Below are positions 57,333 to 62,308 of a DNA stretch of 64,000 nt, in pieces. The notes below the pieces were generated by a model that did not search any database, had not been told where the DNA came from, and saw only the letters and a list, made by a program, of their open reading frames with translations. The stretch's first letter is position 1. The number at the start of each line of letters is the position of its first letter. Position numbers and translations under genes: made by a program. Origin of the DNA: Escherichia phage vB_EcoM_VR7; sequence record NC_014792.1. One strand, written 5' to 3'.

Positions 57333-57340
57333 TATAAATA
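57333..57340 (+). promoter_or_regulatory. Late promoter TATAAATA upstream of gene 13
   Basis: Exact TATAAATA 19 nt before gp13 ATG, then AGAGGAAAA RBS. Confidence 0.55.
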
Positions 57341-57358: not shown

Positions 57359-58297
57359 ATGGCAACTGAATCATACAACCCGAAACAATTAAAAGATGCA
57401 ATCCTTCGTCGTCTTGGTGCACCAATCACGAATATCGAAGTTACGACCGAACAGGTTTATGATTGTATCCAGCGTGCATTAGAATTATATGGCGAATATC
57501 ATTATAATGGTTACAACAAAGGCTATCAGGCTTTTTATATTGGTCATGATGAAGTTTCACAACAGAAATTCCGTGATGGTGTTTTCGATTTAAAAGGTCG
57601 TAATATTTTTGCAGTAACACAAATTATTCGTACTAACGTCGGTTCATTAACTTCAATGGATGGCCAGGCAACATATCCATGGTTTACAGATTTCGTTCTG
57701 GGACTTGCCGGGATTAACGGTGGAATGGGAAGTTCTTGTAATAGCTTTGGTCCAAATGCCTTTGGCGCAGACCTTGGTTATTTTACACAGCTTATGCAAT
57801 ATCGTTCGATGATGCAAGACCTGATGGTTCCGCTTCCGGATTACTGGTATAATGACGATACTGAACAACTTAAAATTATGGGCAACTTCCGCCAGGGAGA
57901 TGTGATTGTAATTGAAGTTTACACCAAATCCTTTAATGGTGTTGATGCAATGGCCAGCAATACGGCAGGTAATGGTTATGCTTCTGGTGATTGTGATAAT
58001 CCGTGGAATGCCGGTGCACAGTGGGATAACCCGGCACGCAGAATAGGCGGCATGAGAGCTGGTGAGGACCTTGGACTTCAAGATGGTGCATACAACAACC
58101 GTTGGGTGAAAGACTATGCCACGGCGCTTGTTAAGGAAGTTAACGGCAACGTATTGGCAAAGCACCAGGGAATGATGATGCCGGGTGGTGTCACAGTTGA
58201 TGGTGTTCGTTTAATCGAAGAAGCTCGCATGGAAAAAGAACGTCTCCGCGAAGAACTTGACCTGCTGGATGCACCGACTCCTATATTGGTGGGCTAA
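57359..58297 (+). CDS. 13: gp13 neck protein
   Basis: 312 aa; synteny and size. Confidence 0.85.
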
Positions 58298-59082
58298 TGG
58301 CTACATATGACGCGAACTTATTCGCCCGGCTCGAAGACGGGACCGGGTATGACAATACCAATGCTACAGAGATATTGAACCCTTATGTAAACTTTATGCA
58401 TCATGAAAATACCCAGACTTTAGCCGATGCTATTGTTGCTGAAAGTATTCAGATGCGCGGAATGTCTCTCTATTACATCCCAAGACAATTCGTTAAACCA
58501 GATTTGTTATTCGGTGAAGACCTCCAGAGTAAATTTGATAAAGCATGGAAATTTGCTGGTTATCTGGATACGTTCGATGCATATCAGGGTGATGGTTCTA
58601 TCTTCAGTAAATTTGGCATGACTGTGAACGATGAAATCACAGTGTCGATTAACCCTAATCTGTTTAAACATCAATGCAACGGCACCGAACCTATTGCAGG
58701 GGATTTGATTTATTTCCCTCTCGATAACAGTCTGTTCGAAATAACCTGGGTACAGCCTTATGACCCGTTCTATCAGGTAGGTCAAAACGCCATCCGTAAA
58801 ATCACCGCGAGCAAATACATTTACTCCGGAGAAGAGCTTAAACCTGAATTGCAACGAAATGAAGGTATTAATATTCCAGAATTCAGTGAGCTCGATTTGC
58901 AACCAATCCACAATATCGATGGCCTTACAGATATCAGTGATATCCCTTATGCTGAATCCGATGAGATTAACGCAGAAGCAGCTGAATATGTTAAACCATA
59001 TTTTGTGCAGAATGGCCGTGGACTTGAGTCACCGCCTAAGGCAAAACAGGATAGCTTTGACGATAGTTTCTTTGATGAATAA
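58297..59082 (+). CDS. 14: gp14 neck protein
   Basis: 261 aa; synteny and size. Confidence 0.85.
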
Positions 59083-59125
59083 ATACATTTATTAATGCGC
59101 CCGAACTGGGCGCCTGGAGGTTACT

Positions 59126-59997
59126 TTGTTTGGGCATTTTTATAATTCGTCTCTGCGTCGCTATATCGTTTTAATGGGCGATTTATTTTCCCATGTACAA
59201 GTGGCCAGAACCAGAGAAGACACTGGACTTAAATATATTAAGGTCCCTATTTCTTATGCATCAAAAGAAAAATTCATGATGCAGCTTGGAAAATGGACAG
59301 CAATTCAGAATACACCGACTCCTGACATGTCACCACAAGAACGTGCTGCTCAGAAGGCTAAAATCGAGACCGTACTGCCCCGTATGAACTTACATCTTGT
59401 TGACTTGATGTATAACGGGCAATATAAAACGGCTCTCCAGAATCACACACAGGCGCGATTTGCTAATAACGACCCTCGCAAGCAGATATCTCAATATTCT
59501 CCGGTGCCGGTCAAAATGATTTTTGAGCTTGGAATATATACAAGGCATCAAGATGATATGTTCCAGATTATCGAACAAATCATGCCTTACTTCCAGCCAC
59601 ATTTTAATACAACTATCACCGAACTTTACACGAATGAAATTACATTCGAACGTGATATACGAATCGTGCTTCAGTCCATTGCTATGGATGAGCAAATTGA
59701 AGGTGATGCAATGACTCGTCGTAGACTTGAATGGTCCATTATGTTCGAAGTCAACGGTTGGTTATATCCACCGGTTAAAGAAGTGGCCGGAGAAATCCGT
59801 ACTATCTATCTTGACTTCTTTGCAAATTCCAGAGAGCTTGCGCCGGAAGGTAATTTCGAATCTGTTGACTCGGAAGCCGTTCCGCGAGATGTCGACCAAG
59901 AAGACTGGCAAGGTGAATCCATTCAAACATACTCGCAGGATATTCCTGTACCGGTCGACCCAGCACCTCCAGCACCAAGAAAAAATAGGGTACCATT

Positions 59998-60001
<4 letters not shown>
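59126..60001 (+). CDS. 15: gp15 tail sheath stabiliser/tail completion protein
   Basis: 291 aa; [13 protein letters not shown]...; appears to use a TTG start 5 nt after GGAGG. Confidence 0.85.

Positions 60002-62308
<2,307 letters not shown>

Follow-up and report, generated by a model that had tools for sequence, protein, structure and literature searches.

A TTG codon as the probable translation start of the tail terminator gene 15 in a Gaprivervirus genome

gp15 of T4-like phages and UUG as a bacterial start codon

The gene 15 product, gp15, is essential for the completion of the T4 tail. It is the hexameric tail terminator of this phage, where it rests on gp3 and gp18 and serves as the docking partner of gp14 (PMC12929629). 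T4 gene 15 (NP_049774; PDB 4HUD, 3J2M, 9MKB) is embedded in the gene order 13-14-15-16-17, is annotated from an ATG at position 95367, and encodes a protein of 272 amino acids; the crystal and cryo-EM entries contain its full-length sequence, MFGYFYNSS.... Initiation codons other than AUG are part of the bacterial repertoire, and UUG is one of the three canonical start codons, decoded by the initiator fMet-tRNA. In Escherichia coli, about 3% of the genes start with UUG; codons of the AUG/GUG/UUG group support initiation at 10-100% of what AUG achieves, and AUU and CUG reach 1-2% (bioRxiv 10.1101/063800).

The locus studied here is situated in a stretch of 64,000 nucleotides from Escherichia phage vB_EcoM_VR7 (NC_014792.1; referred to in the following as the window), a member of the genus Gaprivervirus (Straboviridae, Tevenvirinae). 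From the gp15 of Escherichia phage vB_EcoM_VR25, or VR25 (YP_009209921.1; NC_028925 93327..94202) it shows essentially no difference: the DNA is 99.7% identical over the 601 bases from 58900 to 59500, the protein is 99.3% identical, and both genomes share the same TTG codon, the same Shine-Dalgarno (SD) sequence and the same hairpin in front of it. The CDS is annotated from the TTG in VR25, and likewise in VR20, VR26, CJ20 and P479, whose GenBank/RefSeq records were checked directly. The TTG start of gene 15 is already annotated and hence not new. In the annotation of the first 100 kb of the VR25 genome, TTG starts five of 184 CDS and GTG three of 184; TTG starts are a minority there, and they are not unique to gene 15.

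The gene 15 start region

Gene 15 of the window runs on the plus strand from 59126 to 60001, and the ORF listing presents it as a reading frame of 291 amino acids with TTG as its first codon. Its product matches the Pfam family PF16724 (T4-gp15_tss; E 1.9e-100, score 335.6 bits, cut-off 25), with residues 4-271 covering positions 1-244 of the 245 profile positions. A phmmer search against the PDB retrieved T4 gp15 (3j2m, 4hud, 9mkb and others; E 4.9e-103); residues 1-285 of the query align to residues 1-271 of the T4 chain, residue 1 falling on residue 1 of a chain that begins with MFGYFYNSSFRRY. The two neighbouring genes match PF11649 (T4 neck protein, gp14) and PF11053 (terminase small subunit, gp16), and the placement of gene 15 between gp14 and gp16 homologues is the same in T4 and VR25. 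Gene 14, delineated by Pfam, the ORF list and the VR25 annotation, occupies positions 58297..59082 of the plus strand and ends with a TAA (59080-59082) 43 nt before the TTG. The initial annotation had taken the frame that opens with TTG to be gene 15, an assignment with which the Pfam and PDB matches, the neighbouring genes, and the gene order of VR25 and T4 all agree. We consequently treat the protein as the tail sheath stabiliser or tail terminator gp15; judged from its homology to the T4 protein alone, it would cap the tail as a hexameric ring and bind gp14, gp3 and gp18.

The putative initiation codon, a TTG at 59126..59128 on the plus strand that would be read as fMet, is preceded on the same strand by the SD sequence GGAGGT (59116..59121), all six bases of which are complementary to the 3' end of the 16S rRNA. 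The GGAGG core (59116-59120) is separated from the TTG by the 5-nt spacer TTACT (59121-59125), and the codons downstream (TTT GGG CAT TTT TAT AAT TCG TCT) specify (M)FGHFYNSS; motif, spacing and peptide match exactly what had been described when the site was first noticed. Eleven codons 5' of the TTG lies an in-frame TAA (59093-95), and our reading of the ten codons between the two (TGC GCC CGA ACT GGG CGC CTG GAG GTT ACT) revealed no in-frame ATG, GTG or TTG. The first in-frame ATG after the TTG is codon 17 at 59174, and both the sequence and the ORF list confirm the earlier contention that no in-frame ATG would retain the conserved residues F2 and G3. The predicted pairing with the 16S 3' end amounts to -10.5 kcal/mol for the TTG at 59126, to -1.5 kcal/mol for the ATG at 59174, and to -2.4 kcal/mol for an in-frame CTG at 59114. 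We rejected this CTG as a start since it lacks an SD sequence and is replaced by CCG in phage CJ20.

The region displays the features expected from a UUG initiation site: an in-frame stop codon followed by the TTG, an SD sequence at a spacing of ~4-9 nt, and a coding type of conservation that reaches to the next ATG. The GGAGG motif occurs 39 times on the two strands of the 64-kb window, and six of these copies stand 3-10 nt before the start of an ORF of at least 50 amino acids. Because so few of the motifs precede such starts, the motif alone constitutes weak evidence, and we regard homology, rather than GGAGG, as what decides in favor of the TTG.

When codons 2-16 were compared between the window and 25 distinct T4-like nucleotide sequences, 178 synonymous and 37 non-synonymous codon differences were found. 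Third codon positions vary in all 15 codons, first positions in nine and second positions in seven; the residues G3, Y6, N7, S8, S9, R11 and Y13 are invariant throughout this set. Such a pattern argues for purifying selection on a protein-coding segment, and because the codon differences are mostly synonymous and these residues do not change, the N-terminal residues of gp15 are in all likelihood translated.

These data bear directly on the proposal that gene 15 starts at the in-frame ATG of codon 17 (Met17; 59174..59176, plus strand), which would yield a gp15 of 275 amino acids and turn the 48 bases in front of it into an untranslated leader. ATG is the preferred start codon, and Met17 has been chosen in 11 related records; these records, however, reflect the output of gene callers and not experiments. 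The ATG lacks an SD sequence, the 16 codons in front of it are conserved at the protein level across genera with mostly synonymous change, and in the alignments they correspond to the first 16 residues of T4 gp15 and to the beginning of the Pfam domain. Moreover, Met17 is not universal, as two of the 25 distinct relatives carry CTG in its place. We therefore judge Met17 not to be the start and consider initiation there very unlikely. The anatomy of the site, the homology of the N-terminus, the conservation of the codons and the genus-wide fixation of the TTG support the alternative, and translation of gene 15 very probably begins at the TTG at 59126.

Fixation of the TTG within the genus became apparent when a 35-base query (59116-59150), comprising the SD sequence, the TTG and codons 2-8, was run against a phage collection. 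It returned 31 Gaprivervirus records, each of them 100% identical, which represent 26 distinct genomes after removal of GenBank/RefSeq duplicates and stem from plaque-forming phages from several countries, sequenced by different groups; the surrounding 601 bases (58900-59500) vary by up to 3.7% among these records. Because these 35 bases are identical in all 31 records, a base-calling error at the TTG, which the initial annotation had named as the finding that would overturn its proposal, can be excluded on the basis of these sequences. The same data leave next to no room for the view that the TTG is a sequencing error or a mutation that inactivated an original ATG and made gene 15 a pseudogene in this record. 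While one record, that of Escherichia phage 212, lists gene 15 only as a misc_feature, the same TTG and context recur in all 26 distinct genomes, the gene is intact over 291 codons and under purifying selection, and its product is essential in T4. We deem the pseudogene interpretation extremely improbable.

Existing annotations of the 31 records are split: in 11 the CDS covers the TTG, in 11 it starts beyond it, one carries a misc_feature and eight are unannotated. Met17 was verified as the annotated start in SP18, MN01, P896, DK-13 and P8, and was deduced for the other records of this type from the lack of a feature under 59116-59150. Hence, 11 of the 23 annotated Gaprivervirus records begin gp15 at Met17 and thereby cut off 16 residues that rank among the best conserved in the protein. 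In the record of phage 212 (PQ765507), the misc_feature reads 'similar to tail sheath stabilizer' and begins at codon 2, presumably because the TTG was not accepted as a start; an essential structural gene is thus listed as a start-less fragment. The main value of our analysis consequently lies in annotation quality, namely in a correction for those records that truncate or drop gp15. Comparable annotations are found outside the genus: gene 15 of phiP4-3, which has an ATT at the start position, is annotated from Met17, and in the ZZ1 record, where an additional A in a run of A residues shifts the frame relative to Henu6, the annotated start is an ATG that is out of frame. N-terminal, proteomic or ribosome-profiling evidence on Gaprivervirus gp15 was not found in the literature that we searched.

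Start codons and spacer structures across T4-like phages

The initial annotation had pointed to the start codon of relatives as an informative comparison. For this comparison we used T4 and 35 gene 15 sequences taken from IMG/VR. Opposite residue 1 of the window protein, 27 of the 35 have ATG, six have TTG and two have ATT; this codon is always followed by FG(H/Y)(W/F)YNSS, with MHGNFYNSS as the one exception. The annotated ATG of T4 gene 15 is the codon homologous to the TTG of the window. In all sampled relatives of the enterobacterial T4-like type, the conserved N-terminus MFGH(F/W)YNSS begins at the codon homologous to the TTG, and the comparison as a whole supports the TTG start.

In a neighbor-joining tree of gp15, TTG is present in two separate clades, and so is ATT. 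The first TTG clade is Gaprivervirus, the sister clade of which includes the Dhakavirus phage VR5 with an ATG; the second is the CIP9 group of Kanagawavirus (Enterobacter phages CIP9, IME523 and Q7622, and Kosakonia phage 305), whose relative PEi20 has an ATG. The TTG of the CIP9 group is preceded by the 8-base SD sequence GGAGGTGA, is annotated as the start in the CIP9 record, and has apparently arisen independently of that in Gaprivervirus. ATT is found in Bragavirus (Proteus phage phiP4-3 and Shigella phage vB_SdyM_006, or SdyM_006) and in Zedzedvirus (Acinetobacter phages ZZ1 and Henu6). Gene 15 of the ATT lineages reads IFGHWYNSS... from the ATT, with GGGGGTGGG or TAAGGAG upstream, and in phiP4-3 and SdyM_006 the short out-of-frame ORF ATGATGGGGGTGGGTTATTTTTGG overlaps the ATT site. 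In the sampled T4-like phages, the ATG of gene 15 has thus been lost at least four times independently (twice to TTG and twice to ATT), while in genes 14, 16 and 17 of the same loci an ATG is invariably present at the aligned N-terminus or directly beside it.

In the four lineages that lack the ATG, the predicted SD energies are -10.5, -15.2, -13.2 and -9.3 kcal/mol (mean -12.05 kcal/mol) versus a mean of -7.4 kcal/mol for sixteen ATG contexts (Mann-Whitney p 0.004). That a stronger SD sequence compensates for the loss of the ATG is suggestive only, since the lineages are few and related, and since the ATG-using Dhakavirus VR5 clade possesses an equally strong SD sequence (-11.4 kcal/mol). With this proviso, the recurrent loss of the ATG at one gene, together with stronger SD sequences, may provide a small example of compensatory evolution of translation signals.

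One can go a step further and ask whether the TTG start is also part of a selected device for dosage control, in which a weak start codon, a strong SD sequence and a conserved mRNA structure would together keep the synthesis of gp15 low or couple it to the translation of gene 14. The repeated loss of the ATG at gene 15, its retention at genes 14, 16 and 17, and the stronger SD sequences of the lineages without ATG are in line with such a device; the equally strong SD sequence that the Dhakavirus sister clade combines with an ATG, and the small number of related lineages, are not. A further argument in its favor derives from conservation at the nucleotide level. The 14 Gaprivervirus sequences compared differ at 98 of 1001 sites, almost all of them third codon positions, and not one of these sites lies in the 105 nt that cover the SD sequence, the TTG and codons 1-32 (59116..59220, plus strand), the longest invariant run within the 1001 nt. 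In a comparison of 5.7 kb from eight genomes, however, this run ranks third, behind runs of 131 nt (62096-62226) and 120 nt (60370-60489), and we rejected the idea that the invariant 5' region is a unique signal given these two longer runs. The 120-nt island comprises the end of gene 16 and the start of gene 17, and the 131-nt island is located near the end of gene 17.

The spacer between genes 14 and 15 contains a GC-rich hairpin (GCGCCC-GAACT-GGGCGC; 59097..59113, plus strand) with a predicted energy of -12.4 kcal/mol that ends 2 nt before the SD sequence. A hairpin is present at the same place in most of the sampled Tevenvirinae lineages, with stems that are entirely different between genera and loops that are often UUCG, GCAA or GAAA in the other genera; within the genus, the sites that vary lie in the loop or turn a G-C pair into G.U. 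No such hairpin occurs in T4 or in the Acinetobacter and Proteus lineages. Stable tetraloop hairpins have long been known from intercistronic regions of T4. We rejected an intrinsic terminator as an explanation for the hairpin at 59097-59113, as it lacks a T-run and as a scan of positions 58700-59400 for terminators and sigma-70 promoters yielded nothing. An Rfam search of positions 58800-59400 with E values up to 1 returned no family, apart from one chance snoRNA match far below the threshold.

In the device envisaged above, this hairpin would alternate with a second structure that covers the SD sequence and the start codon. The minimum-free-energy fold of positions 59083-59160 indeed contains a helix between 59099-59106 and 59128-59135 (strands GCCCGAAC/GUUUGGGC) that covers half of the SD sequence and the G of the TTG; its predicted energy is -18.2 kcal/mol versus -12.4 kcal/mol for the hairpin alone. 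If real, this alternative fold would hinder initiation at the TTG. The helix depends on the GGG codon of Gly3, which is unique to the lineage of the window among the 25 distinct sequences, and three variable sites within it retain pairing by wobble. Against its significance stands that the fold of positions 59075-59165, whose core is this same helix, does not exceed shuffled sequence in stability (z -0.22), that the helix was not seen in other lineages, including the CIP9-group TTG lineage, and that three wobble-compatible transitions would occur by chance in about one of eight cases. Taken together with the longer invariant runs elsewhere, these observations lead us to consider a selected dosage device unlikely.

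A broader and more speculative proposal views the start codon of gene 15 as an evolutionary dial for gp15 dosage, in which weak starts are paired with strengthened SD sequences and a 105-nt switch in Gaprivervirus couples gp15 to the translation of gene 14. The open form of this switch could correspond to the hairpin at 59097-59113 and the closed form to the helix 59099-59106/59128-59135. In a variant of this proposal, the changes of the start codon might be by-products of gene conversion driven by endonucleases, or of escape from their target sites, an idea that is grounded in the gene 14-15 junction being a recurrent insertion site of homing endonucleases. We regard the dial, its endonuclease-linked variant included, as distinctly improbable.

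Different T4-like lineages have repeatedly acquired homing-endonuclease genes in the vicinity of the gene 13-14-15 junctions. Such a gene occupies the gene 14-15 junction in one sampled locus (L010) as well as in ZZ1 and Enterobacter phage MY742, and segC is present between genes 13 and 14 in two further sampled loci (L002:267-902 and L098:3321-3902). In ZZ1 and Henu6, the stop codon of the endonuclease gene is found 1 nt before the ATT of gene 15.

Proposed initiation and comparison with known systems

The preferred reading, a translation start at the TTG, lends itself to a simple model for the synthesis of gp15. Ribosomes would read gene 15 on a late polycistronic mRNA that extends from gene 13 to gene 17. 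The octamer TATAAATA, which we take to be the T4 late-promoter consensus, was detected by a motif search as an exact match at 57333..57340 (plus strand), 19 nt before gene 13; no further exact copy is present between this position and gene 15, including the interval between genes 14 and 15, and the next exact motifs on the plus strand are at 61802 and 62301. The motif at 57333 is the probable promoter of a late mRNA that covers genes 13, 14, 15 and beyond, and because the only exact motif upstream precedes gene 13, gene 15 is probably part of a 13-14-15-16-17 late transcript. At 59078-59085, overlapping the stop codon of gene 14, is the sequence AATAAATA, which matches TATAAATA in seven of eight positions; the same octamer AATAAATA is found at the end of gene 14 in T4.

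On this mRNA, base-pairing between GGAGGU (59116-59121) and the 16S rRNA 3' end would position the 30S subunit, and the initiator fMet-tRNA would read the UUG with a mismatch at the first position, so that the chain begins with fMet-Phe-Gly-His-Phe-Tyr-Asn-Ser-Ser. The UUG should initiate at a lower rate, and the comparatively strong SD sequence may offset this weakness. A reduced initiation of gp15 would be tolerable because six copies per virion suffice.

Compared with T4, the window has the same gene order and the same N-terminus, MFG(Y/H)FYNSS, from residue 1 onward. T4 gene 15 differs in its ATG, in its weaker SD sequence AGGAG (-7.3 kcal/mol), and in the lack of a GC hairpin in the gene 14-15 spacer; its product is also shorter than the 291 amino acids encoded in the window. 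With the E. coli genes that start with UUG, gene 15 would share the mechanism, as the initiator tRNA decodes the UUG after a normally spaced SD sequence. In contrast to them, it belongs to a lytic phage, and AUG is the start codon in most orthologues. The biology is ordinary in this respect, UUG being a normal bacterial start codon. The E. coli infC gene, which encodes IF3, starts with AUU and is autoregulated. It resembles gene 15 in that a weak start codon goes along with a low demand for the protein, and its AUU has a counterpart in the ATT that two other T4-like lineages have at the start codon of gene 15. Unlike infC, however, gene 15 gives no sign of a feedback loop, and its UUG is far less discriminated against than the AUU of infC.
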